A DNA stretch of 64,000 nt from a virus (Duplodnaviria; Caudoviricetes): positions 375 through 64,374 of IMG/VR virus record IMGVR_UViG_3300032132_000439. One strand, written 5' to 3'. The notes beneath the pieces were generated by a model. The model made no database searches, was not told where the DNA came from, and saw only the letters and a list, made by a program, of their open reading frames with translations. Position 1 is the first letter of the stretch. Each line of letters opens with the position of its first letter. A program made the translations under genes and the position numbers. This document shows, one piece after another, positions 12,935-52,182 of this stretch.

Positions 12935-12989
12935 TTTTCTCTCCAAGAGTTTGGCGGCGCATTACCAGATGCACCGCCGATTTTTCAGT

Positions 12990-13367
12990 TTATAGATTAA
13001 CTTCACGGCAAGCGGATGAAACCACTTTCAAGCCTGAAATCTCACCGGAGCCCGTGTTTAGCGAGGCCCGACCGACAAGATCAGCTTCCGTGAATAGGTA
13101 TTGGCGTTTCATGTCGATCAATGTGATTGTCACATCAACACAAGAAAGATCACCAAGCTCAGCCAGTGATTGCCCCATGCGATCTGAAATCGTAATTTCA
13201 GCTTCCGCCGGAACAGCCTTTACCGTTACATAGTGAGTGCCGTTTGCGTTTGCGTCCGCTTCCCGTTCAACCGTGCTTGGCTGAACGGTAACGTCACCGC
13301 GCAAGTTGTATTTGTTGTTGCCAGCTTTAATGCTGACGCGCCCTGCGGCGTTGTTGCAACCTTGCAT
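12990..13367 (-). CDS. Tail tube protein (Mu gpM-like)
   Basis: Size, position after sheath, GE....F/V C-terminal pattern. Confidence 0.8.
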   Translation of the reverse strand: MQGCNNAAGRVSIKAGNNKYNLRGDVTVQPSTVEREADANANGTHYVTVKAVPAEAEITISDRMGQSLAELGDLSCVDVTITLIDMKRQYLFTEADLVGRASLNTGSGEISGLKVVSSACREVNL

Positions 13368-13381
13368 AATTTCTTACCTTA

Positions 13382-14866
13382 TTAGCTGTTGAAGTTGCCG
13401 AGCTGTTGATGAGTGATCATCTGAGCTGCGAAGACGCGGAATTGGTTCACCATGTCAGGCGGTAGGACCGCATCAATCCGGTCTGGATCGGTAACGCTAC
13501 GCTCCATAGTGAGCAACGATTCAAACAGTGCGTAATTCTCGCAAATGCTGAGATCGCAAAGTTTTGCATAAGCATGCAAGACCGTGGCGCGAACCTCATC
13601 AACTGTAGCAACGTTGTCCCGGTTTAGTGGGTCAGTTTCAGCAAGTGCAACCTGAGAATAAGCCCCGGTAACTTCCGCTTTCAAGAAACGTGCAACGCCC
13701 ATGCTTTGGAACATTGTGTTCACATTCAACCAACTTGGATCGGCAAGCCCCCAATCATTCAATTGGTAAGTTGTGTTCATGCGATCAATGATCACGTTGC
13801 CAGCTTTATCAACCCGGTAACCGCAAAGGCCGTCAAAATACATTGATTGACGCTCGGTGAGATCCCAACGGTCAGCGATCAACTTTGGAGCTTTGATGCC
13901 CTTCAAAGTTGTTGCGTGCATCGGAACCGAAAGGTTCGTGCCAATGCCGTTGAAGTGTGCTGCAGTAGCACCGGCAAGAGCGCCTACCCAATCAAAGATT
14001 GGTGAGCCTGAATTGTAGACCGGCATAATTGATGCGTGCGGGTCGTTACGGGTATTACCGAAAGCGCTCAACACCGCATAGGTGCCGTTTTTCGCTGTGA
14101 TAACGTGGCCGTAAAGCTCTTTAGCGTAAGACCAGCGACCGCTTGTGCCGTCCATAAAGTCTTGCGTTGCATCAAGGTTTGTCGCGTCATTGAACGGCAT
14201 GCCGATCACGTCAAACTCTTCATCGCCCAAGTTCGCAAGCAAACCTGAAACGTCAGCCGTGCCAGCACCACCAGTAAAGGCAACCACTGTGAGCAATGTT
14301 GCGCTTGTCACGCCTTCATCACCAACGCGATCAAGTTCCAACACCATGTCGTCACTGATAACACCCGTGAAATCAGATGTTAGCGTAACAACACCAGCCG
14401 CATTAGCTGCAGTTACCGGCGTGTAAACATTGGCGTTGATTTCTGCAACGATGTTTGCGGCAATGTCTGTGTCTGTGTCAGTTGTTGTCACTGCAACTGA
14501 ATAGCGTTCACCATTCAGATAGAAGTAAACCGTACCAGCCGCCGTCAATGGCGCGCCCGCAACTGTGATTGTAGCTGTTGAAGCTGCGCCCGCACCTTCG
14601 GCAACAGATGCAACCCAGATTTCTTGCAACGGCGCGTTGTCGCGTGCTGCTCGGTACATTGCTGCAAGAACGGAATTTGCACCGGCAAGCTGATCAATGT
14701 TGTCGTTTACGAGTGTCGCCGTGTCGTTCGCTAGTGTGCCGGTTGCACTTTTGTGACCGACGAGCAAACAACGATTAGATGATTGAAAAACCGCTTGTGA
14801 GGGGTTGATTTGGAACGATGCCAAAGGAACCCGCAAGTTTTGTGGAATGTCTGCAACTGCAACCAT
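13382..14866 (-). CDS. Tail sheath protein (Mu gpL-like)
   Basis: IP.NLRVPL, RWSY...YGH, TTYQ.N..G..D.SWL, PPD.VNQ.RVFA. Confidence 0.95.
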   Translation of the reverse strand: MVAVADIPQNLRVPLASFQINPSQAVFQSSNRCLLVGHKSATGTLANDTATLVNDNIDQLAGANSVLAAMYRAARDNAPLQEIWVASVAEGAGAASTATITVAGAPLTAAGTVYFYLNGERYSVAVTTTDTDTDIAANIVAEINANVYTPVTAANAAGVVTLTSDFTGVISDDMVLELDRVGDEGVTSATLLTVVAFTGGAGTADVSGLLANLGDEEFDVIGMPFNDATNLDATQDFMDGTSGRWSYAKELYGHVITAKNGTYAVLSAFGNTRNDPHASIMPVYNSGSPIFDWVGALAGATAAHFNGIGTNLSVPMHATTLKGIKAPKLIADRWDLTERQSMYFDGLCGYRVDKAGNVIIDRMNTTYQLNDWGLADPSWLNVNTMFQSMGVARFLKAEVTGAYSQVALAETDPLNRDNVATVDEVRATVLHAYAKLCDLSICENYALFESLLTMERSVTDPDRIDAVLPPDMVNQFRVFAAQMITHQQLGNFNS

Positions 14867-15078
14867 TATGATTTATCTCCAAAGGATTGTTTTACAACCG
14901 GAGCGGATTGCTTAGGCTGCTTAGTTTCTTTGACTTCAACAAGATCACCAGCATTCAAGCGGCGCTTGTAAAAAGCATTAAGCGGAAGTTTTTTGCCTTC
15001 AACCGGAACGGGATCAAAATTGCGATCCGGTTGACGAACTAAACAGCCCTCAGCGGGCTTCAAGACCATTGTTTTCAT
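14866..15078 (-). CDS. DUF2635 (Mu gp38-like) protein
   Basis: KPA.G..VR.P....P.EG......Y.RRL..GD.V. Confidence 0.85.
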   Translation of the reverse strand: MKTMVLKPAEGCLVRQPDRNFDPVPVEGKKLPLNAFYKRRLNAGDLVEVKETKQPKQSAPVVKQSFGDKS

Positions 15079-15089
15079 GTTGTTTCCCG

Positions 15090-20252: not shown

Positions 20253-20281
20253 AAAAAAGCCCGCCAAAAATGACGGGCTTT
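20253..20281 (-). terminator. Intrinsic terminator
   Basis: AAAGCCCGTCA-TTTT-TGGCGGGCTTT then T run. Confidence 0.8.
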
Positions 20282-26310: not shown

Positions 26311-26325
26311 TTGAAAGAGAACATC

Positions 26326-39379: not shown

Positions 39380-39629
39380 TGTATTTCTCCATTTACGCAA
39401 ATTTCGATATGCACAACCTCACCATATTCACCAAAAACGCAAGAGGGGGTGTGTATTGAAAAGGGTTGCAATTCTCAGTTTCGGTGATTATTGCAGTATT
39501 AATGCACCACTCAAACCCATGTAAACCAAGGCTTTTCAAAATAAGTTACCAAAAATGACATTTTTTTGTTGCATTCACTCAGGGATAAGTTAGATTACCA
39601 ATATTGAGAAAACAACTTGGAGAGATCAA

Positions 39630-39911
39630 ATGACAACGACTAAAGAGACTTTCATGCAAGCCTATATCCTGCAACGCGCCGGTGCCCACACTGGCTCCAT
39701 TACATCGGGCAAGCTTGTGGCTAGCGCTGCAAACGTTTGGCAAGAGCTGCAGTATGAACTTGGTAATGAAGAGCGCCCACAAGCGGTAAGCCATGATGAA
39801 GATGGTGTTGTAATCACGAACAGTGATGAAACTGACAGTAACGGCACAACTATCGGTGAATGCGATGCCGTGCCGATCCCGTTCATGAACACTCCCGGCG
39901 ATTTGGATTAA
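39630..39911 (+). CDS. Hypothetical early protein
   Basis: Start follows CAACTTGGAGAG. Confidence 0.65.
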   Translation: MTTTKETFMQAYILQRAGAHTGSITSGKLVASAANVWQELQYELGNEERPQAVSHDEDGVVITNSDETDSNGTTIGECDAVPIPFMNTPGDLD

Positions 39912-39975
39912 TCAGAATTGAGGTTGCGCTGACTGGCATTGGCGCAACCCCAAACTTTCAACTTGGAGAATTATT

Positions 39976-40314
39976 ATGTCGCTTATGGATATCGCGCAGT
40001 TTGCGCAGTTTCGACACGGAATTGAAAGCGTTGAGCTGAACGGAAATAGCATTCGCTTGCACTTCCCAAGTGGCCCCCTTGATGCACCAAAAAACAATGC
40101 TGCATTCGCTGAGGTCACGGCTCCGGTAAACCCCGCAATTGGCCTTGAAGTCTATGAGTTGGCTGTTCGGTTCTACATTCCCCACAATGACGGTCACGGC
40201 CTTCAACATACGCACCGCGCATTCTTCAATGACCGCACACAATTGCTTGATTATCTGAGCCGTGAAACTGGTTACAAATTTGAAGCGCCTAGCGATTGGG
40301 AGTTGGTGGCATGA
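39976..40314 (+). CDS. Hypothetical early protein
   Basis: Start follows CTGGCA hairpin + CAACTTGGAGA. Confidence 0.65.
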   Translation: MSLMDIAQFAQFRHGIESVELNGNSIRLHFPSGPLDAPKNNAAFAEVTAPVNPAIGLEVYELAVRFYIPHNDGHGLQHTHRAFFNDRTQLLDYLSRETGYKFEAPSDWELVA

Positions 40315-40427
40315 GCTATTCAACCCGCATGCAAATCTTGCTTGGCGCTGGCCTTGCTGCGCTTGTCTTTCTTACCCTTTTGGTTCTGGAAAACCAGTTA
40401 GCCGAAGCCGCGAAACTAGCGGTATGA
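40311..40427 (+). CDS. Small membrane peptide (not in ORF track)
   Basis: MSYSTRMQILLGAGLAALVFLTLLVLENQLAEAAKLAV, ATGA overlaps at both ends. Confidence 0.55.
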   Translation: MSYSTRMQILLGAGLAALVFLTLLVLENQLAEAAKLAV

Positions 40428-40633
40428 AAAACCTAGATTTGATAGCTTGCGCCGGTCTTATCTTGTCCGAGGCCGCCGTTCGCCCCGCCCCACCCCGTGA
40501 TGACCCTTTCAGCATGTATGGGTGGGGCGGAGGGCGATGCAGAACGCAACCCAAACCACCACCCTCAAAGGATCGCTCAAAGGCAAAAGCCGCACGTAAG
40601 CAATCCCGCAAAAATCGGAGAAAGAAAAAATGA
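40424..40633 (+). CDS. Small protein with Arg/Lys-rich C-terminus
   Basis: KDRSKAKAARKQSRKNRRKKK; ATGA coupling. Confidence 0.6.
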   Translation: MKNLDLIACAGLILSEAAVRPAPPRDDPFSMYGWGGGRCRTQPKPPPSKDRSKAKAARKQSRKNRRKKK

Positions 40634-41016
40634 AAATCGAAACATTGGCGGCGGAATGTCGTGATGAAATTTTGTCTAACCTTGGTGATCGATCCGGCAT
40701 AAACTTGGATAGCTGTTCTTTTGATGAAGAGATTTGGGAAGAGATCAAAACGGCTCAGTCTGAGATCATTGAACGCGCACTCCAAAAGCAGCGCGATGCC
40801 CTACTCACCGGCTCCAAGGAATGGGGAGATCGCAAAGACGATCTTACCGAGGTGATCAAGGCAAATCACCCGCACTATACAAAAGACTACGCACCGTATT
40901 CTCGCGCTCAAGAGTTGGTTTCAAACCGGCATTCAAAAGGTGCTTTGATCGGTCTGGTCAGCTACCTACTCGGCCAAGCCGCGATGATCGGTGACGCTGT
41001 GGAAAGGCACGGTTGA
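40630..41016 (+). CDS. Hypothetical protein
   Basis: Coupled ORF. Confidence 0.6.
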   Translation: MKIETLAAECRDEILSNLGDRSGINLDSCSFDEEIWEEIKTAQSEIIERALQKQRDALLTGSKEWGDRKDDLTEVIKANHPHYTKDYAPYSRAQELVSNRHSKGALIGLVSYLLGQAAMIGDAVERHG

Positions 41017-41330
41017 TCATGGGGCATGAGCTAAAAGCCACGGCCAATGACTTGCACCTTGTGTTGGAGACTTTCACTGTCGCCCAAATGGCCAACCCAC
41101 AAAGCGCAATAGCACCCATGAGGGCTGTTGCGGAACTTTTCGCACGACAACGGGCCAATGAGCAAGAACGCGCTCAGAAGAGCTTTAAATCGCTTTCGAT
41201 GCGTGTGGTCCAGCTTGATAGCGCATACGTGCGGTTAAAGAATGACCCCAACTCCCCGGAAGCGGTGAGCGAGCTGGAAAACCGATCAAAAGATGTTCGG
41301 GAAATCATAGACGCGGCGAGGTTTCAATGA
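41013..41330 (+). CDS. Hypothetical protein
   Basis: Coupled ORF. Confidence 0.55.
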   Translation: MIMGHELKATANDLHLVLETFTVAQMANPQSAIAPMRAVAELFARQRANEQERAQKSFKSLSMRVVQLDSAYVRLKNDPNSPEAVSELENRSKDVREIIDAARFQ

Positions 41331-41584
41331 TCAACAATCAAACAACCAAACGGTGTTTTGAGTGCGGTGACGTTTTTCCTGATCAGCGCGGGTTGGATAT
41401 CCATCTAAACAATTGTCAGTACACAATTGATGCACGGGAGGAAAGAGCTAAAGCCAGCCGGGATTTGGATATTAGCAATAGAGCCAACGAAATCTTTTAT
41501 GAAATTGTTGGTGACCATGATCAAGAAACCCTATGTCCGCGGAAGTTGTCTGAGTTCTTAGCGGAGCAGGAGTATTCAGTATGA
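41327..41584 (+). CDS. Zinc-finger (C2HC/C2H2-like) protein
   Basis: C..C...F.....L..H...C. Confidence 0.6.
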   Translation: MINNQTTKRCFECGDVFPDQRGLDIHLNNCQYTIDAREERAKASRDLDISNRANEIFYEIVGDHDQETLCPRKLSEFLAEQEYSV

Positions 41585-41733
41585 TTGGCCGTTTTCTTTG
41601 TCGCATTGGCTTTCACCGGTACGGACGGAAGTATTTTGCCGCCGGTAAAGATTGGGCCTTTGGTATGGGGCACCGGGCGCGGAACTGCAGACGTAAAGAC
41701 TGCAAAGTCACGCTGAGATATTGGCCCGACTAA
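41581..41733 (+). CDS. Small Cys/His protein, DUF1660-like (not in ORF track)
   Basis: LCRIGFHRY...C.R..C; AGGAG RBS. Confidence 0.55.
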   Translation: MIGRFLCRIGFHRYGRKYFAAGKDWAFGMGHRARNCRRKDCKVTLRYWPD

Positions 41734-41812
41734 AAACGCACATTGACAAACAACCCGACATTCATTCGAGTGCCGGGGATTCTTTAAACCAACTCAGTAT
41801 CTTGGAATAATA

Positions 41813-42607
41813 ATGCTTTCAAAGCTTTTTAAAAAAATCAAAAGTATCATTTGGTTCATAATCAAATGGTTTTTTCTGATCCCGCTTGCACTTTTTATTG
41901 TTGTAGGCTTATCGCTTGGCCTTTACGAAAACTTGACCGGCAACAAGATTGCTTGGCCCGGCAACTCAGAAGTTGCGGAAATTGCAGAAGCCAACCCTGT
42001 TGAAGAAACGGAAGTGCTTGATGCGGCTCCCGCTGTAATTGAAACCGAACCGGCAATAGAAAACTCAGAAGCGTATTTGGCCGGTCTTTACGATCAAGTT
42101 TTTCACAAGTGCGATCACGAGGCTGCTAACATTCCAGCGAACTCAGCTTTCTTGGCTAGCTATTTTCATTGGAGCGTTGCCTATGATGAAAGCTATTTCA
42201 CCGGCATGCGTGAGGGTCATGAGTTGATCCATGAACAAGGCGAGGAGTTCGCATGCGCCTACCTGATCGGCGTTCTGTCAAATCACGCCACAATCACGAA
42301 GCGACCAACCCCAACTGCAGATGATCGAGAATTTGCCTTCGGAACCGGCGTTTACTCAGCTTTCGTGGCGGATTGTGGCTACGTTCTGGATGGCTCAGAA
42401 TTGGGGAAAACACACCATCAGGCCGTTGCAACTGAGCGAATGAAATCGCTTACGGAATACCATGATGGACTGCACCTTGTTTACGATCTTGTCGAAAAGT
42501 TCGGGCTCAAAAGGGCTTGCGATGAAATCGCTCAGGGAGTTATCAAACCATCTGACTTTGGAATAAAGCCCGATATTCCAGAAAATCGATCACCGTTGTT
42601 GAACTAA
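41813..42607 (+). CDS. Membrane-anchored protein with two internal repeats (moron)
   Basis: N-terminal TM, own TTGACA promoter at ~41743, downstream terminator. Confidence 0.7.
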   Translation: MLSKLFKKIKSIIWFIIKWFFLIPLALFIVVGLSLGLYENLTGNKIAWPGNSEVAEIAEANPVEETEVLDAAPAVIETEPAIENSEAYLAGLYDQVFHKCDHEAANIPANSAFLASYFHWSVAYDESYFTGMREGHELIHEQGEEFACAYLIGVLSNHATITKRPTPTADDREFAFGTGVYSAFVADCGYVLDGSELGKTHHQAVATERMKSLTEYHDGLHLVYDLVEKFGLKRACDEIAQGVIKPSDFGIKPDIPENRSPLLN

Positions 42608-42614
42608 GCAAACC

Positions 42615-42640
42615 AAAGGGCGCATCATGCGCCCTTTTTC
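42615..42640. terminator. Bidirectional terminator
   Basis: AAAGGGCGCAT-C-ATGCGCCCTTTT. Confidence 0.7.
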
Positions 42641-43008
42641 TTCACCAATGCCAGCAAGTCCGCATTCAATTGAGACTGCCAACCCCTGCCCGTTAATCGG
42701 TAGTGTTTAAGCACCTCACTATCCAACCTTATTGAGATAGATTCTTTGCCCTTACCTGCAGGTAACTTAGGGCGACCACGCTTAGCCTTGGCAAACATCG
42801 CGTCTGACCATTCCGGGTTGTCAGCATCCGCCGCAATACCGGCCTGAATTTCTTGTTCCGTGATCAGTTCTCTTGGAGGAGTATTCGCCGCTCGTAGCCC
42901 ACTATATCTTACTTTTGCTTCGGCTCTAACTGCTTTAGCATCCTTTATAATAAACGAGCCGCTTCCTTGGCGGGTGTCATCATCCTTGCTCTTCGATGAT
43001 TTTCTCAT
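42625..43008 (-). CDS. brnA: BrnA antitoxin
   Basis: RGRP, ISIRLD..V...Y...G.GWQ...N..L. Confidence 0.9.
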   Translation of the reverse strand: MRKSSKSKDDDTRQGSGSFIIKDAKAVRAEAKVRYSGLRAANTPPRELITEQEIQAGIAADADNPEWSDAMFAKAKRGRPKLPAGKGKESISIRLDSEVLKHYRLTGRGWQSQLNADLLALVKKKGA

Positions 43009-43267
43009 ATTTTCGCACCTCCCTTTTGTTAGACTTTCGCAAGCTAATCACACGTATTGCATCTTCACGTATGGTGTAACAAATAGCATGTAACCGCTCG
43101 CCAATTTTCACATGGCATAACTGGCGCTCTTCACCGTCATGGTTTTGGGTAAGGCAAATCGCGCTATCCCAATCAATAAGCTTTGCGCTTTCAAACGCGA
43201 TTCCGTGCTTATCAAGGTTCTTTCGCGCCTTGTTATCGTCCCATTCATATTCAAATTCATCACTCAT
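42980..43267 (-). CDS. brnT: BrnT toxin (RNase)
   Basis: EWD..K...N..KHG..F, GEER, RVISLRK...E. Confidence 0.92.
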   Translation of the reverse strand: MSDEFEYEWDDNKARKNLDKHGIAFESAKLIDWDSAICLTQNHDGEERQLCHVKIGERLHAICYTIREDAIRVISLRKSNKREVRKYEKIIEEQG

Positions 43268-43276
43268 GTCAATAAA

Positions 43277-43288
43277 TGTATATACATT
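43277..43288. promoter_or_regulatory. Palindromic operator upstream of brnT
   Basis: ATGTATATACAT perfect palindrome 10 nt before start. Confidence 0.55.
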
Positions 43289-43415
43289 AAAACAATAATG
43301 CAACCTCAAAATGGGTACGTTTTATTGATAAAATGTACAAGATGCTTGTATATTGAGGTTGACCAAAGAATCTTCATCGCTCAGAGTGAGTACATGGACA
43401 ACTTGGAGAGCCACG

Positions 43416-43679
43416 ATGAAGAATTTTGTAGAACAGATTAAAGACCTAATGGAAGCACGCGGTTGGGCGGAAAATCGGAGCCGTTTCGTTTCCGTTTTAG
43501 TACCAAAATTGGAAGCCTACCCACCATATTTCTTTGCACTTGAAGAAACGCTTGAAGAGCAAAGCGGCACGCTTGCACTACGCGATTGCTTGCATGAAGT
43601 AATGCCATACGGCGTGAGCCTGAAAGACGATAACATGATTGATGCAATTGATGCTGTAATGGGTGAGTTGGTGTGGTAA
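43416..43679 (+). CDS. Hypothetical protein
   Basis: Start follows CAACTTGGAGAG. Confidence 0.6.
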   Translation: MKNFVEQIKDLMEARGWAENRSRFVSVLVPKLEAYPPYFFALEETLEEQSGTLALRDCLHEVMPYGVSLKDDNMIDAIDAVMGELVW

Positions 43680-43861
43680 TGGCTAAATCAACTTTAAAGG
43701 CCGCTGACAGGCATTTCGTTACGATCCGGGCCCATGCTGCAGTAGGTAATGAGGCCGCCGCCACGCGCTATTACTGCGAGCATCGGATTTCATATGCAAA
43801 ATTCATGAAAGCACTAAATGAGGGCCGTGACCAACGGAGGAGAAAACAAGATGACAAGTGA
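43679..43861 (+). CDS. Hypothetical protein
   Basis: TAATG coupling. Confidence 0.55.
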   Translation: MAKSTLKAADRHFVTIRAHAAVGNEAAATRYYCEHRISYAKFMKALNEGRDQRRRKQDDK

Positions 43862-44051
43862 AGATTTTGTGAGCTGGCTAGCAGAAATGAAGTCCGCGGG
43901 ACTTGGTCGATCTGACGCAAAGTGCGCTGAGCTTTTGGGTATCTCGAAAAACAGCGTTGTGGCCATTAAGAAAAATGGGGGCGACATACGGACCGCACTT
44001 GCGTGTAGAGCTTTGTTGCATCGCATGGAACCGTACGGCAAATCAGTTTAG
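43851..44051 (+). CDS. Small HTH protein
   Basis: MT..DF..W....G.S....AELLGIS..SV, ALAC.AL; GGAGGAG RBS. Confidence 0.75.
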   Translation: MTSEDFVSWLAEMKSAGLGRSDAKCAELLGISKNSVVAIKKNGGDIRTALACRALLHRMEPYGKSV

Positions 44052-44122
44052 CGCATTCAAGTGGTTGGAGCTTTCTTTTATACAACCGCGTAAAGAGCCA
44101 AAAGCAACACTATGCATGCAGG

Positions 44123-44156
44123 AAAGGGCTAGGGGTTCGCGCCCCTAGCCCTTTTT
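44123..44156. terminator. Bidirectional terminator
   Basis: AAAGGGCTAGGGG-TTCGCG-CCCCTAGCCCTTT. Confidence 0.8.
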
Positions 44157-44381
44157 AATTCCCATCTCCAACGCCGCCTCTTCACTGGCCTCAGAAATAG
44201 CCCTCATAGTCTCTTCCGTGTAAACACCAACTGCGATAGCCATTGCCTCAAAGAACGCCTCACGGCTTACGCCATCGAATTTAGCGCCCTTTGATTGCAA
44301 GAACGGCCCAACCTTTGCAGCGGCGCTTTTCAACGCCGCCACTTCAAAGTCTTCAAGGTTACTCAGATGGTTGTGTATCAT
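44145..44381 (-). CDS. Hypothetical protein (DUF6511-like)
   Basis: E..A...A....G.FL...G pattern. Confidence 0.5.
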   Translation of the reverse strand: MIHNHLSNLEDFEVAALKSAAAKVGPFLQSKGAKFDGVSREAFFEAMAIAVGVYTEETMRAISEASEEAALEMGIKKG

Positions 44382-46239
44382 CTAACGCACTCCATCTTGC
44401 AAGGCCATCAACCTCTCCCGGTTGACTTGTCGCGATCTTGCGGCGCTTTAACCGACCAAGGCAATCATCAACAACCGTGTAAAGCTGGCCGGTTACGTCC
44501 ATGATATCCTCAATACGCACCCCAACCGCTTGTTGTTTCAACACCTCATAAACGATGCGATCCGCGCCATTGGAGAAAGTGCCGGGCGCATCATAAAGGA
44601 AAGACTTAACGCGCGTGTAGCTGCCATCCTCTTGCACAACAATCCGGTCAGGACACCGCAAAGACTTAGCCCGAACAATCGCCTCACTGGTTGTGCTTGG
44701 GTAAGGCTCCTGCCCGCCGTGCGCAGTCCACCAGCGTTCAGCCATCTTGCGCGCGCCACCAGCATGCTCAAAACAAACCCATTCAGGAATAGGCGCGGAT
44801 TTCTTGACGCTTGGAATGTAATACCCAACCTTCATGCTCGTTGCGGCACCCTGCTTTTCATGGCGCTCAAATGTCCATGTTCGGCAAAAAGCTCCAGGGA
44901 GATTGGCCGCACGTTCATCCTCAAAGTGGCCTTGGTTTTTAAGCAAAGCGCGCGTGTCCGCCGTCCGATCGATCTTATCAGTTTCAACCGGCTCAGGGAA
45001 AACATACCCGCACTCATAACATTCACTGCATTGGATCGGCAAAATTGTACGGCAAGACTCTTGCGGGCACACTTTAACCGGCGCGTCCCCCACTTTATCG
45101 CTCTCAGAGCGCCGTTTCTTGGTTGGTGGTGGTTGCACATCATCAATAGGTCCGTGGCGCTTCACGTTGCCCGCAAAGTCCAACACAAGGCAATTTGTTT
45201 TGCCGGTGTCCGGTGAGATCCGCAAACCACGGCCAACCATTTGTTGATATAGCCCGGGGCTGGCTGTCGGGCGGCATAGAGCGACCAAATCCACGTTTGG
45301 TGCATCAAAGCCCGTTGTGAATACATTTACGTTCACAAGGCACCTCAGCTCACCGTTTTTGAACCGGCGAACCATATCCTCACGCTCACCTTTGCTTGTG
45401 GAGCCGGTTACGCATTCAGCGCCGAAGCCGTGGCCATCAAGCAAGTGCGTCAGTTGCTCCGCGTGATCAATGCTTGATGCAAAAACCAAGATGGACTTGC
45501 GATCATGGCCAACCTGAACGATTTCATTCACGACCGCCGCGTTGGTATCAAGCGTGTTCACTAGCTGATCAACTTGGGAGCTGTTGAAATCACCGCCTTG
45601 ATAGTTGATTGCCCGCATGTCGAATGTTGTGCGCATTGCCTTTGGAACAACCGGGCTAAGATAGCCGCGTGAAATCAGTTCACCAACGTTCACTTGATAG
45701 GCAATATCATCAAACATTGTCTCGTCAGTGTCGCCATATAGCAAACCACAATCCAAGCGATATGGTGTGGCGGTTAGGCCTAATGAACGATAGTTTTCAT
45801 GATGACGTTTTGCATCTTCAAACATGCGCCCGTACATCGTGTTAGATTTCGGGTTAATCGTATGAGCTTCATCAACGATGAATAGATGCGCTCCCCCGAT
45901 TTCATCAAGCTTGTTGTAAATGGTTTGAACGCCACCAAAGAGAATTTGAGCGTTACGGTCACGACGGCCAATGCTTGCGCTGTAGATGCCAACCGGCGCT
46001 TGTGGCCATAGGGAAAGCAACCGCTCCAAGTTCTGCTCAAGCAGCTCTTTTTGGTGCGTCACGCATATAATCCGCATGCCGGGATACATCTCAAGCGTCC
46101 GTTTGCAGATTTCAGCGTTGATCACCGATTTACCGGCGCCGGTGGCCAAATCGAGAATTGGGTTGCCGCCTACTTCACGCCAATATGTAAAAGTCGCGTC
46201 AACTGCAGCTTGTTGATAGTCGCGCAAAACATAATTCAT
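44359..46239 (-). CDS. DEAD/DEAH SF2 helicase (RadD/YejH-like)
   Basis: LRDYQ, ATGAGKS, DEAH, TATP, TGFD.P, QM.GRGLR, C-terminal Zn ribbon. Confidence 0.95.
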   Translation of the reverse strand: MNYVLRDYQQAAVDATFTYWREVGGNPILDLATGAGKSVINAEICKRTLEMYPGMRIICVTHQKELLEQNLERLLSLWPQAPVGIYSASIGRRDRNAQILFGGVQTIYNKLDEIGGAHLFIVDEAHTINPKSNTMYGRMFEDAKRHHENYRSLGLTATPYRLDCGLLYGDTDETMFDDIAYQVNVGELISRGYLSPVVPKAMRTTFDMRAINYQGGDFNSSQVDQLVNTLDTNAAVVNEIVQVGHDRKSILVFASSIDHAEQLTHLLDGHGFGAECVTGSTSKGEREDMVRRFKNGELRCLVNVNVFTTGFDAPNVDLVALCRPTASPGLYQQMVGRGLRISPDTGKTNCLVLDFAGNVKRHGPIDDVQPPPTKKRRSESDKVGDAPVKVCPQESCRTILPIQCSECYECGYVFPEPVETDKIDRTADTRALLKNQGHFEDERAANLPGAFCRTWTFERHEKQGAATSMKVGYYIPSVKKSAPIPEWVCFEHAGGARKMAERWWTAHGGQEPYPSTTSEAIVRAKSLRCPDRIVVQEDGSYTRVKSFLYDAPGTFSNGADRIVYEVLKQQAVGVRIEDIMDVTGQLYTVVDDCLGRLKRRKIATSQPGEVDGLARWSALDDTQPSE

Positions 46240-46532
46240 GAGCGCAAACCTTGGACGCGGAAGACGGAAGCGTTGTGCGAGAAACCTTCAAAAACGCCGT
46301 TGTCTGCCATGCGCATAATCCAGCTTTTTAGCGCGTTGACCGGCAAGCGCAATTCAGCGGCCAGATCAAGAAAGCGCATTGAACAAATACCGCATTCAGC
46401 AATTCGTTTTTCAATGATTGATTTTGGTGTTGCTTTAATGGTTTTCGGCTTACGTGTGCGCGTGTATTCAACACCGCAATCGCTAGGCCAGTCAAAACGC
46501 GGCGGAACCGCAATAGCTAGATAATCAGTCAT
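46236..46532 (-). CDS. Hypothetical wHTH-like protein
   Basis: Start follows CTGGCA hairpin + CAACTTGGAGG. Confidence 0.55.
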   Translation of the reverse strand: MTDYLAIAVPPRFDWPSDCGVEYTRTRKPKTIKATPKSIIEKRIAECGICSMRFLDLAAELRLPVNALKSWIMRMADNGVFEGFSHNASVFRVQGLRS

Positions 46533-46593
46533 GTGACCTCCAAGTTGAAAAGAACCGGGGACGGTGCCAGCCGCACCCGGTTTGTTGTTTGTT

Positions 46594-46716
46594 TTAGATA
46601 CCGGCTAGCTTTCGCATTGCCTTGAGCTTGCTGATTTCAAGAATGTTCCAAAAGAACCGGAAAGCTAAGGCAAGCATACCGACCACAATTAGCCATAAGG
46701 TGATGTCAAAAAGCAT
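46594..46716 (-). CDS. Small membrane peptide (not in ORF track)
   Basis: MLFDITLWLIVVGMLALAFRFFWNILEISKLKAMRKLAGI. Confidence 0.5.
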   Translation of the reverse strand: MLFDITLWLIVVGMLALAFRFFWNILEISKLKAMRKLAGI

Positions 46717-46717
46717 T

Positions 46718-47266
46718 TCAATGATCATAGGTAGCTCCCGCTTTATCCAATCGCGCAATCACGCTTTCGGCTTGGTTTAGTGCATCGCTGAGAGCATCGT
46801 GCTTTGTGCCCGTGTACTCAATTTCAGCGTCAGTTCCCCAAAACGCCTCAAGCGTCCGTACGCTTCGGGTTTGGTGGTATCTCCAAGGCACCGATAAATC
46901 GCAAAGCTCATAGGCTTTAGCCAAATGCGAACAATCAAAATCCGGGTCTTTCGCCCACACATGTTGCGGTCGGTGGTTTTGGAAAAGTTCACTAAGACGA
47001 TAGAGCGCCGAACCTATCGAGTAGCCACCTGTCGCAATTTGCGTGGCAAACAGCTCAACGTCAGTTTCCGCCCACCACTGCAGTGTTGAAAGGTCAATTT
47101 TCATGCCCATCGCAACGCACGATTGCGGGTCGATTTTCAAGTTAAGCTTTGAAATCATCTTGCCGTCAGGCAAAGTCGGATCAAAGACAACCGCGCCAAT
47201 TTGCGTGATCACTGAGCCGGGCTTTAAGCCAAGGTTTTCAATGTCAATCATAATGTGTTTTGACAC
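46718..47266 (-). CDS. 3'-5' exonuclease, DEDDh (DUF5051-like)
   Basis: MIDIE, IGAV.F, FD...L, H.AL.DA..QA. Confidence 0.9.
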   Translation of the reverse strand: MSKHIMIDIENLGLKPGSVITQIGAVVFDPTLPDGKMISKLNLKIDPQSCVAMGMKIDLSTLQWWAETDVELFATQIATGGYSIGSALYRLSELFQNHRPQHVWAKDPDFDCSHLAKAYELCDLSVPWRYHQTRSVRTLEAFWGTDAEIEYTGTKHDALSDALNQAESVIARLDKAGATYDH

Positions 47267-47271
47267 GGCGG

Positions 47272-47484
47272 TTACTCCAAAAGCTCATTGATGCGCTTTG
47301 CGATGCGCTCGGCTTTTTCTTTGTCGCTAAATGCAAGCTCATTATCGACCTCAAGATGATCGATTTTTTGCTTGTTTGTGGCGATTTTGGCCGCTTTCTT
47401 TTCAGCCACTTTCACCAAGTCAGTTGCGACTTTTTGCAAAGTCCCGATTGCCTTATTCAAGGTCAGATTTGCCGCTAGTTCCAT
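47272..47484 (-). CDS. Small coiled-coil protein
   Basis: Start follows CAACTTGGAGAG. Confidence 0.65.
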   Translation of the reverse strand: MELAANLTLNKAIGTLQKVATDLVKVAEKKAAKIATNKQKIDHLEVDNELAFSDKEKAERIAKRINELLE

Positions 47485-47485
47485 T

Positions 47486-47782
47486 CTATCTCTCCAAGTT
47501 GATTTTGCGTCCAGCCGGTGGCCCGGCTAATGCATTGTTGATATTCGGAGCGGTGCAATGATCATGGATCAAGTTGCCCACTACCCGGCGCAGTTCGTTT
47601 TCTTCAAAGATTTCCAGCCGGGTTGAAAATCTTATTGAGGCCATGCGGTTGATCGCATCGAAAACCTCAAGATCGACCAGCGAAAACTGGTTGGTTAGTT
47701 TGAAAATTGATGTTCCATTCGCAAAGCGGCGGAAGATTTCAACCTTCTTTTTTTCTGAAATGGTGGCGCTATATTCATGCAT
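47486..47782 (-). CDS. Hypothetical HTH-like protein
   Basis: MHEYS start overlapping upstream stop. Confidence 0.5.
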   Translation of the reverse strand: MHEYSATISEKKKVEIFRRFANGTSIFKLTNQFSLVDLEVFDAINRMASIRFSTRLEIFEENELRRVVGNLIHDHCTAPNINNALAGPPAGRKINLER

Positions 47783-48797
47783 TATCGCCACCCCGATTTT
47801 CCGGGTTGTCCGTAATGTCGCGGCCAGCCTTTTCATCTTCCCCAACCGCTTCCGGTGGTCCATCAATGAAGGTTTCGCCGTTATCCAAGGCGTAAGTAAT
47901 TGTGCCCGCATCTGGGTCCGCGTCGATCTGCTCACCCGGCACAAAGCAAGGGTTGAAAAGGTGGCCTTCACAACCGGCCAATTGCTCGTCGCGGTTTAGT
48001 GGCTTGCTGTGCTTTTCGCACTGCCATGAGCCGTAATCTTTATGAGCAAGCGGAGTTACGTGGATGCATGTGCGGCAAGAGCGTGTTTGAACAAACTCCC
48101 CGCCTTTGCAGATGTTTTTGTAATCGCAGAAGCGGCACGACCAAAAGTCAGGATCATCGGAGACACGGCTTGGCGCGTCGTCAGTGTAAACAATCGATTC
48201 AACGCGGTTGAAAAGATGCTCGCAAAAACCCTGATCATAATCGATAACAATGCTCATTACCGCGTCAGTGTTCTTGTTAACCGCAAGGTAAAGGCATTTC
48301 TTATAGCCGGTTAGGTGCATGTAAGATTGACACTGAATGAAGTGTTCCGGCTTATGCTCTTTCAGCCCCTTTTTAATCAAAGCGTCCCAACTCTTTTGGT
48401 TGTGTGATTTGCACTCCACAACAACCCATTGGTCGTCAATGCCGGGTACATTGTGTGCAACGCCATCAAGCAACCCCCGGGCATGCCCACCAACGCCCCT
48501 AACGCGCATCTGACGGCCTGTGTCTGGATCGTGGGTGATAACTGTTGCCCCGGCCCCGGCAAGCCCCTCAAGCAAGCGCTCTTCATGGATTTCACCAGTT
48601 TCAAACAAGCGGCACATTTTGCCATCAAATTGTTTGGGAGGCGTGGCCCAACGAAACGCATAAAATGGCGCTCGGTTGCAATCCGATCCAAGCATTGAAA
48701 GGCTAATACCGATTGAACCATATGGCTCACCGCGCTTGGCTTGCGAGTAATCGTAAATTTTGTTTGCAACGGGGTCCGTATCTGGTATTTCAACCAT
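47775..48797 (-). CDS. Cas4-like PD-(D/E)XK exonuclease
   Basis: S..G..C.R, G...E, G..DG, ECKS, Q.Q.YM, C.FC....C. Confidence 0.88.
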   Translation of the reverse strand: MVEIPDTDPVANKIYDYSQAKRGEPYGSIGISLSMLGSDCNRAPFYAFRWATPPKQFDGKMCRLFETGEIHEERLLEGLAGAGATVITHDPDTGRQMRVRGVGGHARGLLDGVAHNVPGIDDQWVVVECKSHNQKSWDALIKKGLKEHKPEHFIQCQSYMHLTGYKKCLYLAVNKNTDAVMSIVIDYDQGFCEHLFNRVESIVYTDDAPSRVSDDPDFWSCRFCDYKNICKGGEFVQTRSCRTCIHVTPLAHKDYGSWQCEKHSKPLNRDEQLAGCEGHLFNPCFVPGEQIDADPDAGTITYALDNGETFIDGPPEAVGEDEKAGRDITDNPENRGGDNA

Positions 48798-48890
48798 AAT
48801 AAAAAAATCCCATGATGTTTGCTCTCCAAGTTGACGTTGTGGTGATGGTTGGCCGGGCGAGGGATGCCAGTCCCTATGACCCCGGCCTTT

Positions 48891-49079
48891 TTATTGCCCG
48901 GATTTTTGCTTGGTTATGAAAAACGCCGCTTTGTCTTTGAGGGCTTGTTTGTTGTTCACCAATTTTCGATAGTCAGGCAGGGAAACAACGTCCCTGCCCT
49001 CAATTTCCACCAGCTCCGCATCATTGGTGATCACATCTTGGAACACCTTCGGTAGTGGGGCTTGATGTGTGACTACCAA
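48891..49079 (-). CDS. Hypothetical protein
   Basis: Coupled ORF. Confidence 0.5.
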   Translation of the reverse strand: MVVTHQAPLPKVFQDVITNDAELVEIEGRDVVSLPDYRKLVNNKQALKDKAAFFITKQKSGQ

Positions 49080-49615
49080 GGTTGTGCGCCATTATTGGCG
49101 GTTTGCGCTGGCGTGTCGGTTGCGCCGTTCATATGCGGTGGCTTTTCACCAGAGGCCGCATTTTGTGCCGGAGCCGTTGCCGCTGACGGGTGAATGAAAT
49201 GCTTGATTTCATTGCTCGCCTCATAGCCGTTTTTAGGCGGGTTAACTGCAAGCTCAACAATGAAAGGCAAGCCAATCAATTGATCAGTTTCACCCGGTGC
49301 ATTCTGACCAAAGCCCGTTGCAATACTGGCTTCACCGTAAAGGCGGCGACCTTTGCGCGCATAACCTTCGCTCGGGTGAACCACTGGGTAACGGAACAGG
49401 ATTTGCCGCCCTGCTTGGTCACCGTCAGTGATTTCAATCATCATGTGTACGGTGTACTTGTCAGTATGCTCACCGTTATCAATCGCCTCTTTCTCTTTAG
49501 GCGCGCGGCGGGAAGCTATGAATTTGCCGGGGTATTTGCCAGCCGGGATTGGTGTAAAGCGATCCGCGTCAATTGCCTCTTGTGCATCAAATCCGCCATT
49601 AGGTAGTGCTACCAT
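49073..49615 (-). CDS. ssDNA-binding protein (DUF669-like)
   Basis: P.PAG.Y, I.DG...GR, NEIK, flexible tail ending PW. Confidence 0.82.
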   Translation of the reverse strand: MVALPNGGFDAQEAIDADRFTPIPAGKYPGKFIASRRAPKEKEAIDNGEHTDKYTVHMMIEITDGDQAGRQILFRYPVVHPSEGYARKGRRLYGEASIATGFGQNAPGETDQLIGLPFIVELAVNPPKNGYEASNEIKHFIHPSAATAPAQNAASGEKPPHMNGATDTPAQTANNGAQPW

Positions 49616-49666
49616 TTTAAATCTCCAAGTTGTTGCGTAAGGGTGCCAGCCCTTACATTTCGCCGG

Positions 49667-50599
49667 TTAAGCGGCTGGCGTTTCAGTTGTTGTTGATTGG
49701 GTGTCAGGCGCGCCGTTGTCGGCAAGCTGCTCCGCTTCAACGGCGGCGCTAGCCTCTTGCTCTTCCGTAAGCACTGGCTCAGGTATTGCGGTTGGTGGCG
49801 TATCCATGCCCGGGAAGTAATCGGCCAAAACCTTATATCCCTGAGCTTCGTGATAAACGACCTCAGTAGGTGTTTTGTAACGCGACTTAGCGACAAACCC
49901 CGGGCGCTCTTCAAGATAGATCACGCGGGTTCCGTGGCCTTCCGCGTGGCTATGTTTCTTGTTGAAGCCACCCTCTTGCGTCTTGATGACTTTTTTCTGA
50001 TTAATGAAGCCAACCATATCAACATCATCAACAAGAAGATCGACCACCTTTTTGTGAAGGCGCGGAACATAGCGGTCATAACCTTCCGTTCCCGGCTCGT
50101 CGAAACGCTTAATGTCAAAGTGCGCTAAGATCACAATGGCCATGTTGCGAACGGTGCGCAGCTTGTTGAGCATGCGTAAAACGTCAGCGAACTTGTCTTT
50201 ATAGGCGATATAGCCTTTGCCATATCCCGGCTCTTCAATGTCAGGCCAACCGTTTTCAGCGCAAACTTTGCTGATAATCATCGGTTCAAGCTTGTCGATT
50301 GTGTCGATCACAAGGGTTTTGCGATCATGGGGCTCAGTGCCCAACATGCGCAAATAATCGACAAACTGATCATAACCAGTGCCTTTAATGTCCTGCCCGT
50401 CACCTGTTTTGGAATCTTGCACAAGTGGAAAACTGAAAACCTCAGTATCCGCTGGCAACCCCTCCTCAGTGAAGATGAAAGCCGGGTTGGGAAATTCGCT
50501 TGCAAGGCTGGTTTTCCCAAGCCCTGCAGTGCTGTAGAACAAACAACGCGGTGGCTTCACGTTCTTTGTTGTCTTCAACATTTCCATTAATTTTGCCAT
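49667..50599 (-). CDS. Sak4-like AAA ATPase recombinase (AAA_24)
   Basis: G.GKTSLA, TLVIDT.D.LE, GYGKGY, AK.RY. Confidence 0.9.
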   Translation of the reverse strand: MAKLMEMLKTTKNVKPPRCLFYSTAGLGKTSLASEFPNPAFIFTEEGLPADTEVFSFPLVQDSKTGDGQDIKGTGYDQFVDYLRMLGTEPHDRKTLVIDTIDKLEPMIISKVCAENGWPDIEEPGYGKGYIAYKDKFADVLRMLNKLRTVRNMAIVILAHFDIKRFDEPGTEGYDRYVPRLHKKVVDLLVDDVDMVGFINQKKVIKTQEGGFNKKHSHAEGHGTRVIYLEERPGFVAKSRYKTPTEVVYHEAQGYKVLADYFPGMDTPPTAIPEPVLTEEQEASAAVEAEQLADNGAPDTQSTTTETPAA

Positions 50600-50715
50600 T
50601 TTCTAACTCTCCAAAAATGTAAACAAATCGTTACGTTTTTGCGTAATTGGTATTTTTTTGCTTGCAATAAACGCCTGAGCGTATAGAAGATTAGGCTGCA
50701 ATAAAAAAACGACGC

Positions 50716-50759
50716 TTACCAAATCGGTAACATGCTGCAAGAATTATCAATATTGGTAA
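50716..50759. promoter_or_regulatory. Operator pair in divergent switch region
   Basis: TTACCAAATCGGTAA and TATCAATATTGGTAA between Sak4 and repressor. Confidence 0.65.
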
Positions 50760-50805
50760 TTTTTGCAAGCGACAAAATCATAAATAGTGGAGTAAAAATA
50801 CTGTA

Positions 50806-51456
50806 ATGTTAGAACAAGCCAGTACAATCAAGAGGTTACGGAAATTACGCGGCTTAACTCAGGGTGATTTAGCCCAGCTAATCGCAGAGAATACCGACCT
50901 CGAAACAACAACCGCCACGATTTCACGCATTGAGCGCGGTGATCGCCAGTTGACCGCAAAATGGATCAAGGCATTTTCGCAAGCGCTTGAGGTTGATGAA
51001 TACACAATCATAACGGGCAAGGCCGACATACCGGAAAGCACCGGCGAAAGCTCAGGCATTCCCGTTGCCGGAAGATTGAGCGCTGAAACGTGGTCGAGTA
51101 GCAAAGCTAGCAAAAGCGCATTCAAAACGGTTCCGGTTATCCCAACCGACGAATATAGAGACTATTCACATAGCGCTTTTGAGCTGGAAGAAAACAGCGG
51201 CGTTGAGGAGCTAACGAACGGGTGTGCTATTACAGTTCCCTATTACGATGCGCGGGTGAACCCAACACCCGGCGATCTGGTTGTTGTTCGCTTCACTCAA
51301 GGCGCGCAACCTGAGCGTATTTACCGCACTTGTGCCGGGGAATTAATTCGTGATCGCCTCACAAATACCGTTCAGCTTAGCGTGGCCGGGGTTTTGTACG
51401 AAGTGGAAAAAGCCGACCTATTGGGTAAAATTACTGCAATTTATAGACAAGTTTAA
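50806..51456 (+). CDS. CI-like repressor (XRE HTH + degenerate S24 domain)
   Basis: LTQ.DLA, TISRIERG; IPVAGRLSAE, GDLVVV. Confidence 0.85.
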   Translation: MLEQASTIKRLRKLRGLTQGDLAQLIAENTDLETTTATISRIERGDRQLTAKWIKAFSQALEVDEYTIITGKADIPESTGESSGIPVAGRLSAETWSSSKASKSAFKTVPVIPTDEYRDYSHSAFELEENSGVEELTNGCAITVPYYDARVNPTPGDLVVVRFTQGAQPERIYRTCAGELIRDRLTNTVQLSVAGVLYEVEKADLLGKITAIYRQV

Positions 51457-51518
51457 TAAAAAGGTTGACATAATTCACCGTATTGGTAAATTTTCCAAAT
51501 CAACTTGGAGAGGCCCAT

Positions 51519-52136
51519 ATGGATTTACACCACGAAACGGCTGGCACCGTTTTCAACAAAAAGATGATTTCAGGTCGGCTTGTCGATATCCTGAACCCAA
51601 CGACGGATGATATAATTTTCAGTGATATCATTCACGCGCTTTGCGGGATAACTCGATACGACAACCACACAACGCGCCCAGTTATGCTTTCTGAGCATTC
51701 CCTATATGTCGGGCATTTGATGCGAAGCATCGCCCCGGTGGGTGAGCGGGAAGAATATCAGCGCCACGGGCTTGCGCATGATTTCCACGAATACGCGCTA
51801 GGCGATCAAACAACGCCGGTGAACAAGGCTGTAACGCACCTTGCTGGCATTGATGGATTTGGGATGCTCAAGGCGCGTTGGGATTCTGTGATCTTTGAAG
51901 CCCTTGGAATGACCCCACCAACTGACGCAATAATTGAAGCGGTAAAATGGTGCGACCGGCAAGTTTTCATCGCTGAATATCAAGCGTATATTTACGATCC
52001 TAAGCCGACCGATATTGGCCTTGAAGAATGGCCAGACGACATTGTGGATTTGGACAAAATGCGCGATTCATGGCTTCACATTTCCCCACATCGAGAATTT
52101 GCGCGCATAGCTGTTAAGTGCTTCGCAAACATCTAA
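51519..52136 (+). CDS. HD-family phosphohydrolase (YfbR/YfdR-like)
   Basis: DI.HAL....R...H, EHS, HD.HEY..GD..TP. Confidence 0.88.
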   Translation: MDLHHETAGTVFNKKMISGRLVDILNPTTDDIIFSDIIHALCGITRYDNHTTRPVMLSEHSLYVGHLMRSIAPVGEREEYQRHGLAHDFHEYALGDQTTPVNKAVTHLAGIDGFGMLKARWDSVIFEALGMTPPTDAIIEAVKWCDRQVFIAEYQAYIYDPKPTDIGLEEWPDDIVDLDKMRDSWLHISPHREFARIAVKCFANI

Positions 52137-52182
52137 CACGGCTGGCACCGTGAAAATCTGACTATCAACTTGGAGAACTAAA

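Follow-up and report, generated by a model that had tools for sequence, protein, structure and literature searches.

Hairpins with a constant CUGGYA loop at gene starts of an alphaproteobacterial prophage

Phage-wide motifs associated with gene starts have been known since 2011, and their function is still unexplained. The SAS of Cluster K mycobacteriophages is a phage-specific, asymmetric motif that contains a Shine-Dalgarno sequence, directly precedes the start codon in a subset of genes and keeps almost always to one orientation, with an inverted repeat, ESAS, immediately upstream in about half of the SAS genes; SAS is rare in the host genome, and the function of SAS and ESAS was still unproven in 2025. 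A hexaloop that is read by a phage protein is described for phi21 boxB, whose loop CUAACC is bound by the N peptide and has a U-turn-like core and a non-canonical flanking pair (PMC12550061, PMC6061696). Here we analyze a 64,000-nucleotide stretch of viral DNA, the window, which is the 64,374-base IMG/VR virus record IMGVR_UViG_3300032132_000439 minus its first 374 bases and which holds a prophage with seven dispersed hairpins, hp1 to hp7, that display one hexaloop, CUGGYA, at the starts of genes. As a family with a constant loop these hairpins are real, statistically solid and phage-specific, and they are tied to a private ribosome-binding motif, CAACTTGGAG.

Seven hairpins with one loop

The seven hairpins had been picked out in a preliminary description made from the sequence alone, and the coordinates, strands and sequences given there all proved exact (Table 1). 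Folded in isolation, each of the seven forms the expected hairpin with the CUGGYA hexaloop open, and with 25 nt of context on either side the hairpin is kept in the minimum free energy structure in 7/7 cases, the loop being unpaired with a probability of 0.95-1.00. Hardly any stem position is shared among hp1, hp5, hp7 and the remaining hairpins, while the loop varies by a single C-to-U change. A covariance model built from the seven hairpins, R1, scores them at 22.4-27 bits in the window, where the next best match reaches 14.2 bits.

The hexamer CTGGYA is not itself enriched, as the window contains 57 copies and 53.7 are expected. Its context is bimodal: 50 of the 57 copies have 0-3 flanking pairs, which is chance-like, and the other seven have 4, 5, 5, 7, 8, 10 and 11. 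Intergenic DNA amounts to 4,151 nt of the prophage, or 7.6% of positions 1-54300, and contains six copies, every one of which is a hairpin loop on the strand of both flanking genes; all seven hairpins of the family lie on the coding strand. In a family-wise test for which the hexamer was not pre-selected, comprising 30 intergenic intervals (4,702 nt) and 300 composition-preserving shuffles, the commonest hexaloop was CTGGCA with five copies at stems of at least 4 bp, followed by the next unrelated hexamer with two. The maximum for any hexamer in the shuffles was four, which was attained in two of them, and five was never reached.

The start motif CAACTTGGAG is present in 10 exact copies, each of which lies on the coding strand with an ATG 5-10 nt (mostly 7) downstream. 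With up to one mismatch allowed the count rises to 15 against 4.5 expected, a value reached by none of 100 shuffles. It serves the early genes as an extended ribosome-binding motif; the late structural genes have TAAGGGG-type sites instead.

The layout of hairpins and motifs is regular. Six hairpins begin 0-11 nt past the upstream stop codon and end, at their 3' edge, 18-37 nt before the start codon, and the measured distances bear out the arrangement first reported, with five hairpins before the motif, one (hp7) before its variant ACTCTTGGAG and one (hp2) after the start codon that follows the motif. A stable hairpin is found no more than 17 nt upstream of all seven operon-internal exact motifs (five with the CUGGCA loop, one with a GCCA loop and one terminator). 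The three operon-heading exact motifs have no upstream hairpin, and for two of them a promoter-like site with a score of 10 of 12 is no more than 50 nt away. The gene at 51519-52136 has such a promoter-like site upstream, at 51465-51492, which leaves no room for a hairpin before the start codon and may account for the location of hp2 inside the gene. The shift of hp2 to +16..+33 fits a need for nearness to the initiation region rather than mere gap-filling, and the coding stretch involved is an N-terminal part of the protein outside its PHROG profile match.

Two sites of the leftward operon show additional features. The hairpin at 47513-47528 on the minus strand has a GCCA loop that is complementary to UGGC, the core of the CUGGCA loops; this may be a coincidence, or the hairpin a cis partner. 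The minus-strand motif at 48824-48833 drives a mini open reading frame (ORF) of 7 codons (ATG 48813; window 48790-48833), which passes a seven-T run and whose TGA overlaps the start region of the gene for a Cas4-like exonuclease (ATG 48797, different frame); either termination and reinitiation are coupled here, or the metagenome assembly contains a homopolymer error.

Two familiar kinds of element were considered and rejected. None of the seven hairpins is followed by a U-tract on the sense strand, as had been noted before, the nearest approach being CUUUUC after hp4, and none was called in a terminator scan of 39000-54500, so that they are not intrinsic terminators. Canonical T-tract terminators with other loops do occur elsewhere in the prophage, for example at 9883-9922, 12490-12516, 20256-20281, 30829-30852 and 44121-44156. 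A sigma-54 promoter, with TGGCAC at -24, was rejected by eye against the consensus, the GC at the required spacing being absent from every site.

Table 1. Hairpins, start motifs and other features of the window and of related loci (positions in the window unless a contig or locus is named; energies are folding energies; R1 is the covariance model described in the text)
Feature	Position	Strand	Description	Energy (kcal/mol)	R1 score (bits)	Surroundings
hp1	39922-39949	+	11-bp stem (2 G.U pairs), loop CUGGCA	-15.5	22.6	begins 10 nt past stop of ORF 39630-39911; 9 nt from 3' end to start motif
hp2	51535-51552	+	6-7-bp stem, loop CUGGCA	-6.2	25.7	within HD-phosphohydrolase-like gene 51519-52136, beginning 13 nt past ATG (+16..+33)
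hp3	52137-52152	+	5-bp stem, loop CUGGCA	-5.7	23.3	directly abuts stop of gene 51519-52136; 13 nt to start motif
hp4	46553-46582	-	4-bp inner and 7-bp outer stem with 1x1 mismatch between, loop CUGGCA	-17.6	24.8	5 nt to start motif of ORF 46236-46532, which overlaps helicase gene
hp5	48851-48887	-	5-bp inner stem, loop CUGGCA, in 7-bp GGCCGGG/CCCGGCC outer stem	-21.2	22.4	17 nt to start motif; 7-codon mini-ORF and Cas4-like exonuclease gene downstream
hp6	49637-49656	-	7-bp stem, loop CUGGCA	-10.3	27	between Sak4-like gene (stop 10 nt before) and SSB-like gene; 4 nt to start motif
hp7	12953-12978	-	10-bp stem (1 G.U pair), loop CUGGUA	-17.7	22.7	late tail operon; 11 nt past stop of sheath-adjacent gene; 2 nt to variant motif ACTCTTGGAG of ORF 12632-12934
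Start motif	39959-39968	+	7 nt before ATG 39976			goes with hp1
Start motif	52166-52175	+	7 nt before ATG 52183			goes with hp3
Start motif	51501-51510	+	8 nt before ATG 51519			promoter-proximal; hp2 downstream within gene
Start motif	46538-46547	-	5 nt before ATG 46532			goes with hp4
Start motif	48824-48833	-	10 nt before ATG 48813			goes with hp5
Start motif	49623-49632	-	7 nt before ATG 49615			goes with hp6
Variant start motif ACTCTTGGAG	12941-12950	-	6 nt before ATG 12934			goes with hp7
Start motif	47492-47501	-	no CUGGCA hairpin; other hairpin AGCCGG-GCCA-CCGGCT (47513-47528)	-11.6 (other hairpin)		other hairpin 11 nt upstream
Start motif	30804-30813	-	canonical terminator-type hairpin with T-tract (30829-30852)			terminator-type hairpin 15 nt upstream
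Start motif	39613-39622	+	no upstream hairpin			first gene of rightward operon; 250-nt divergent intergenic region
Start motif	43399-43408	+	no upstream hairpin			45 nt past promoter-like site 43325-43354
Hairpin-motif combination	L285 4290-4349	-	contig of 5,940 bp, 58% G+C			upstream of 37-codon ORF
False-positive R1 site	L150 370-389
False-positive R1 site	L158 2206-2225
False-positive R1 site	L159 5895-5914
False-positive R1 site	L121 8925-8944
False-positive R1 site	L148 364-383
Prim-Pol primase	36875-39379
Leftward early operon	44-50.6 kb		Sak4-like, SSB-like, Cas4-like exonuclease, Rv2179c-like exoribonuclease domain protein, helicase
Rv2179c-like 3'-5' exoribonuclease domain protein	46718-47266	-	profile match, E 4.8e-36			inside hairpin-rich leftward operon
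Rightward operon	50.8-54.0 kb		helix-turn-helix (HTH) regulator, HD-type phosphohydrolase, weakly Nmad5-like protein, integrase
Cellular genes	from ~54.9 kb		HxlR, carbonic anhydrase, KefF/KefC-like pair, cold-shock domain protein, glyoxalase

Occurrence outside the prophage and genomic setting

No known RNA family matches the hairpins. The whole window gave 0 matches to Rfam 15 at gathering thresholds, and with E up to 5 the region 39400-53000 gave two weak and unrelated matches, neither of them at a hairpin. Tests on host DNA used related genomes, the DNA of the actual host being covered by a flank of ~10 kb. In three host-genus genomes (10 Mb), R1 has one match of at least 22.4 bits compared with seven in the window, and CAACTTGGAG occurs 13 times compared with 11 for its control. 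In 17 genomes of one related family the 12-mer CGGCTGGCACCG, of which the prophage has three copies, is found 44 times and its reversed control 51 times; the corresponding counts in three further genomes are 0, 4 and 12 for the 12-mer and 2, 5 and 6 for the control. Of 401 genomes of the order, one has the bipartite pattern of hairpin and motif, the control giving five matches. With the hairpin model and the 12-mer at background in host-genus and related genomes, the hairpins do not qualify as a host REP-like repeat. The preliminary description had named an equal frequency of such hairpins in host DNA as the result that would speak against it; what we find is motifs at background there and hairpins confined to the coding strand. 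A hairpin score alone counts for little outside this genome, because R1 fits its own training sequences by construction and also matches, at 22-25 bits, a conserved coding stretch in GC-rich phage DNA.

The phage is without close relatives among the sequences searched. A megablast of 39000-53000 against GenBank phages gave no match, and the best tblastn matches, to Roseobacter phages, are at 40% (helicase) and 48% (terminase). The best homologue of the helicase among 5.8 billion proteins is 46% identical, and the Sak4-like protein has matches in 5 of 243 genomes of the family, the best at 43%; single-protein scans, one of viral contigs and one of genome contigs, returned nothing. Both motifs are at background in 80 distant viral loci (982,129 bases; helicase 39-43% identical), which contain five CTGGCA and three CTGGTA hairpins with stems of at least 5 bp and 0 copies of CAACTTGGAG. 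The R1 matches in these distant relatives (22-25 bits, five loci; Table 1) were rejected, as they all represent one coding stretch that encodes ...GWH... (GGC TGG CAC) and lies 1,057 nt upstream of the helicase gene.

Pattern searches of IMG/VR contigs produced chance-like matches. A loose bipartite pattern found at least 118 stretches, and among the matches listed six had four flanking pairs, five of the six belonging to one coding family; a stricter pattern found 25 stretches, none with more than three flanking pairs. In metagenome contigs the 11 stretches found reduce to six distinct sequences, five of which are coincidences in coding regions, and a copy on contig L285 is alone convincing. 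It reads, in order, stop codon, 12 nt, GCUCCGG-CUGGCA-CCGGAGC, 8 nt, CAACUUGGAG, 7 nt and ATG, with a stem of 7 bp, or eight pairs counting a basal G.U. L285 is a plasmid-like contig with a ParA-like gene, which alone matches plasmids, at ~66%, and tblastn at E <=1e-3 finds no protein common to the contig and the window. Given this full copy on an unrelated contig, the combination of hairpin and motif is very rare and not strictly private to the phage.

The phage itself is a myovirus-type prophage whose terminase, portal, protease, tail sheath and tape measure genes occupy the minus strand at 10-25 kb; the gene downstream of hp7 (ORF 12632-12934) is small and has a weak tail-protein match. The KefC-like protein of the flanking DNA is 82-83% identical to Maritalea proteins and is also present, at 81-82%, in three genomes (G044, G025, G088). 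From its identity to the Maritalea proteins we take the host to be a Maritalea-like alphaproteobacterium, which agrees with the alphaproteobacterial setting suggested earlier. The helicase sequence is recorded from one 183-kb contig, and the window DNA in one marine metagenome run; for 44100-53000 no RNA data set was listed. The integrase gene (53041-54036) is followed by a 644-nt gap and then by cellular genes (54260-64000), which places the right end of the prophage near 54.3-54.9 kb; a tRNA gene was not found anywhere in the window.

Several other features of the prophage are recorded here in their own right. An oppositely oriented insert among the early genes, at 42625-43267 on the minus strand, encodes a BrnT ribonuclease toxin (E 7e-21) and a BrnA antitoxin (E 3e-16), with a strong two-way terminator-like hairpin beside it at 42607-42646. 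Between the packaging genes and the early region, window 25207-28837 contains an amidoligase_2 gene on the plus strand and two ParB-N domain genes on the minus strand, one of the latter fused to a methyltransferase domain. A 37-nt near-perfect palindrome at 50734-50770 (-16.2 kcal/mol), where the leftward recombination operon and the rightward HTH regulator gene diverge, is likely an operator or origin.

A candidate mechanism and its alternatives

We propose that the hairpins are cis-acting elements of sense-strand polycistronic phage mRNAs, in which a stem that is arbitrary in sequence and length (5-12 bp) would display the fixed hexaloop C-U-G-G-Y-A. Together with the extended ribosome-binding motif CAACUUGGAG, the hairpin would form a 'gene-start cassette' at the start of a cistron. 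One sequence-specific trans-acting factor would read the loop and the top of the stem ~20-40 nt from the start codon; this factor would most likely be an RNA-binding protein or a loop-specific ribonuclease encoded by the mobile element, a complementary RNA being less likely. Once bound, it would jointly set translation initiation, or endonucleolytic processing and segment stability, of ~7 cistrons. That the hairpins act as RNA, that something reads them and that expression responds are all inferences, and we favor the proposal tentatively, giving it somewhat less than an even chance that sense-strand hairpins at cistron starts, their loop read by one specific factor, co-regulate ~7 cistrons. 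It is possible, if rather doubtful, that the hairpin and CAACUUGGAG make up a private 'gene-start code' of mobile elements, shared by L285, which an element-encoded loop-specific RNA-binding protein or nuclease would read so as to privilege or time the translation of those cistrons.

The features of the hairpins that suggest this proposal are their loop, their size, their position and their strand. A constant loop on free stems points to a reader of the loop, since bulk structure needs no particular loop and neutral drift would erase the loop first. The stems of hp2, hp3 and hp6 (5-8 bp) are too short, and the loop is open in context, which argues for an action beyond bulk structure. As the hairpins lie where the 30S subunit occupies or scans the mRNA, and as hp2 moves across the start codon, control of initiation or a cut just upstream of the ribosome-binding site appears probable. 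With both motifs at background in host-type genomes, the reader is presumably not a general host function that serves host genes. G.U pairs account for 5 of the 63 stem pairs on the sense strand, and four of these are internal and become A.C mismatches on the other strand; hp1 follows the direction of its gene and not a single replication polarity. Sense mRNA is favored, because the stretches are certainly transcribed within operons and are tied to start codons.

A number of observations weigh against the proposal. The whole case consists of one genome and one outside copy, L285. In a crude count over the whole window (stems of at least 5 bp, G.U allowed), CTGGCA with five copies ties with GTTGTT and ATCAAC. 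A covariation count of 89.8% paired, compared with 57.2% in shuffles, is circular because the sequences were selected as hairpins, and the top of the stem (SGG/CCS) is common to 4/7 hairpins and L285, so that the hairpins are not fully independent examples. hp2 and hp3 are weak hairpins, with z-scores of -1.5 and -1.8 for the pair. In 5/7 cases the antisense hairpin, whose GCCA tetraloop has a closing U.G pair, is slightly the more stable fold. No candidate RNA-binding domain was found among the 54 window proteins with Pfam and PHROGs, no arginine-rich N-terminal motif in proteins of up to 270 residues starting at 28-54 kb, and no complementary UGCCAG, GCCAG or UGCCA was seen in a plausible non-coding hairpin of the prophage. 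Two ORFans in a protein atlas resemble a winged-helix protein and a helical protein. On the side of the proposal, the CUGG of the loop fits YUNR, a U-turn motif of RNA recognition loops (PMC4485353), and the phi21 boxB hexaloop is a precedent for a loop of this size read by a protein. A partner loop was not seen in plausible non-coding hairpins of the prophage, and a host-encoded partner may exist.

These points qualify three claims of the preliminary description. Of its co-varying stems there remain stems that vary around a kept loop, at sites picked for pairing. Its assignment to RNA is supported by the co-orientation of all seven hairpins and by the internal sense G.U pairs, and weakened by the antisense fold. 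Its bipartite cis-element persists as a non-random, phage-wide, strand-specific family tied to CAACTTGGAG, for whose reader neither a protein nor a complementary-loop candidate was found.

A bolder variant, direct pairing of the loop with a conserved cellular RNA, seems very improbable. GCUGGCAC, which occurs in 4/7 hairpins as well as L285, is exactly complementary to GUGCCAGC, a stretch of 16S rRNA from a host-genus genome, and UGGC would pair with the GCCA-3' end of tRNA. A pairing of CAACUU with 16S rRNA was rejected as one 6-mer site at chance level.

The main rival to a loop-specific reader is that the hairpins are passive boundaries, which mark RNase E-type cleavage and 3'-5' trimming, cap the upstream segment and free the downstream ribosome-binding site, by the logic of T7 intercistronic sites or Rhodobacter puf hairpins. 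The tight fit of the hairpins, 0-11 nt past stops and 2-17 nt before the start motif, agrees with this, as do the hairpin upstream of every internal start motif (two with other loops), the promoter-adjacent start motifs that have none, the A/U-rich spacers between hairpin and motif at several sites, and the Rv2179c-like protein encoded in the same operon, which may have a bearing on mRNA trimming at the hairpins. Passive boundaries, however, leave the fixed six-base loop on unrelated stems and the location of hp2 inside a coding region unexplained, and hairpins of -5.7 and -6.2 kcal/mol would make poor exonuclease barriers; we therefore regard this reading as unlikely, if still the one to be taken most seriously among the alternatives. 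Far less probable is activity of the antisense strand, by which UGCCAG/UACCAG elements (a GCCA/ACCA tetraloop, U.G closed) would stop or mark transcription against the genes. It would make sense of the greater stability of the antisense fold, of the invariant C and A flanking the loop, which become a U.G pair, and of the T-rich tails after antisense hp4, hp5 and hp7, two plus-strand stems within hp4 also being listed as terminator-like. But the tail is present in 3/7 cases only, the four internal sense G.U pairs turn into A.C mismatches, antisense promoters are not evident (promoter-like matches are at shuffle level, 18 vs 16.4), and the tight tie to the sense start motif and start codon would have no explanation.

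Marginally less probable again, and about equal to one another, are two readings that move the site of action to RNA polymerase or to DNA. As nut-like sites, hairpin and linear motif would serve processive antitermination by recruiting an N-type protein of the phage to RNA polymerase, in keeping with the bipartite layout, with hp2 ~36 nt past the predicted transcription start, with hp1 and hp6 after the first gene of an operon and with C1, U2 and C5, which the hexaloop has in common with the phi21 boxB loop CUAACC (PMC12550061). Against this, the sites number seven rather than two, five of them operon-internal and one belonging to the late tail operon, the linear motif serves as a ribosome-binding site that keeps a fixed distance from ATG, and the leftward operon is without intergenic terminators. 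No boxA (10-nt consensus, up to one mismatch) lies beside any hairpin on the sense strand, and neither an arginine-rich small protein nor such a Pfam or PHROG match was found. As DNA-level elements, the hairpins would be extruded in single-stranded DNA for priming, recombination or nicking, or would be sites of a DNA-binding protein; the phage encodes a Prim-Pol primase, a Sak4-like annealing protein, an SSB-like protein and an exonuclease around the sites, and 6/7 sites would be on the lagging-strand template if bidirectional replication started near the palindrome at 50734-50770. Yet hp1 breaks this replication-polarity rule and obeys the transcription rule, G.T pairs and a constant loop on variable stems are ill-suited to a double-stranded DNA-binding site, and nothing at the DNA level would call for the fixed link to start codons.

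Should the proposed reader exist, it and the hairpins would be the two halves of a new RNA-protein pair by which alphaproteobacterial phages coordinate expression after transcription, and they would offer operon design a compact orthogonal part; should there be none, the case is a measure of how far a constant loop can come about unaided. Its reach is limited to one prophage and one plasmid-like contig in everything searched.

Comparison with known systems

The hairpin family is itself new, and it is of a known kind, the phage-wide start-associated regulatory motif. Several systems share some of its features. In Cluster A mycobacteriophages, stoperators are 13-bp linear DNA sites for the repressor, and the PeSL cassettes of T4-type phages carry a promoter; like the present hairpins, both are phage-wide, orientation-dependent regulatory elements repeated at gene boundaries, but neither is known to have a constant loop on variable stems. 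T7 RNase III sites and Rhodobacter puf hairpins are closer in layout, as they are dispersed between cistrons on the coding strand, before ribosome-binding sites and without U-tracts, where they set segment stability and expression. They are not known to have an invariant loop. RNase III needs roughly two helical turns, ~20 bp or more of duplex, compared with stems of 5, 7, 7, 10, 11, 4+7 and 5+7 bp here, so the hairpins are not T7-type RNase III sites.

Lambdoid nut sites, phi21 boxB in particular, resemble the present element in being bipartite with a linear motif and in having a short hairpin that a phage protein recognizes by its loop and not by its stem. The two hexaloops agree at 3/6 positions, and the differences lie in the boxA and N-like protein, neither of which was found here, and in the seven cistron-start sites that stand in place of two promoter-proximal ones; on these grounds membership among nut sites was rejected. 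The judgment first reached from the loop, that it belongs neither to lambda boxB/N nor to T7 RNase III sites, agrees with both comparisons.

The closest analogue in behavior is the SAS/ESAS system of Cluster K mycobacteriophages, the likeness being one of position only. Both systems combine a start-adjacent, Shine-Dalgarno-containing motif with an upstream hairpin or inverted repeat, and both are rare in the host. They differ in host phylum and phage type and in the motif itself, the SAS consensus GGGATAGGAGCCC being unrelated to CAACTTGGAG. The upstream elements are built in opposite ways, since the arms of ESAS are conserved (17 bp) around a variable spacer, whereas here the arms are free and a 6-nt loop is fixed; with another consensus and with variable arms on a constant loop, the present element is not a member of SAS/ESAS. 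Conserved arms would suit a dimeric DNA-binding protein, and a fixed loop would suit a reader of RNA hairpins. The present case is a clean, small and mechanistically more readable example of a start-associated motif, in which the constant loop and free stems point to an RNA reader over a DNA-binding dimer.

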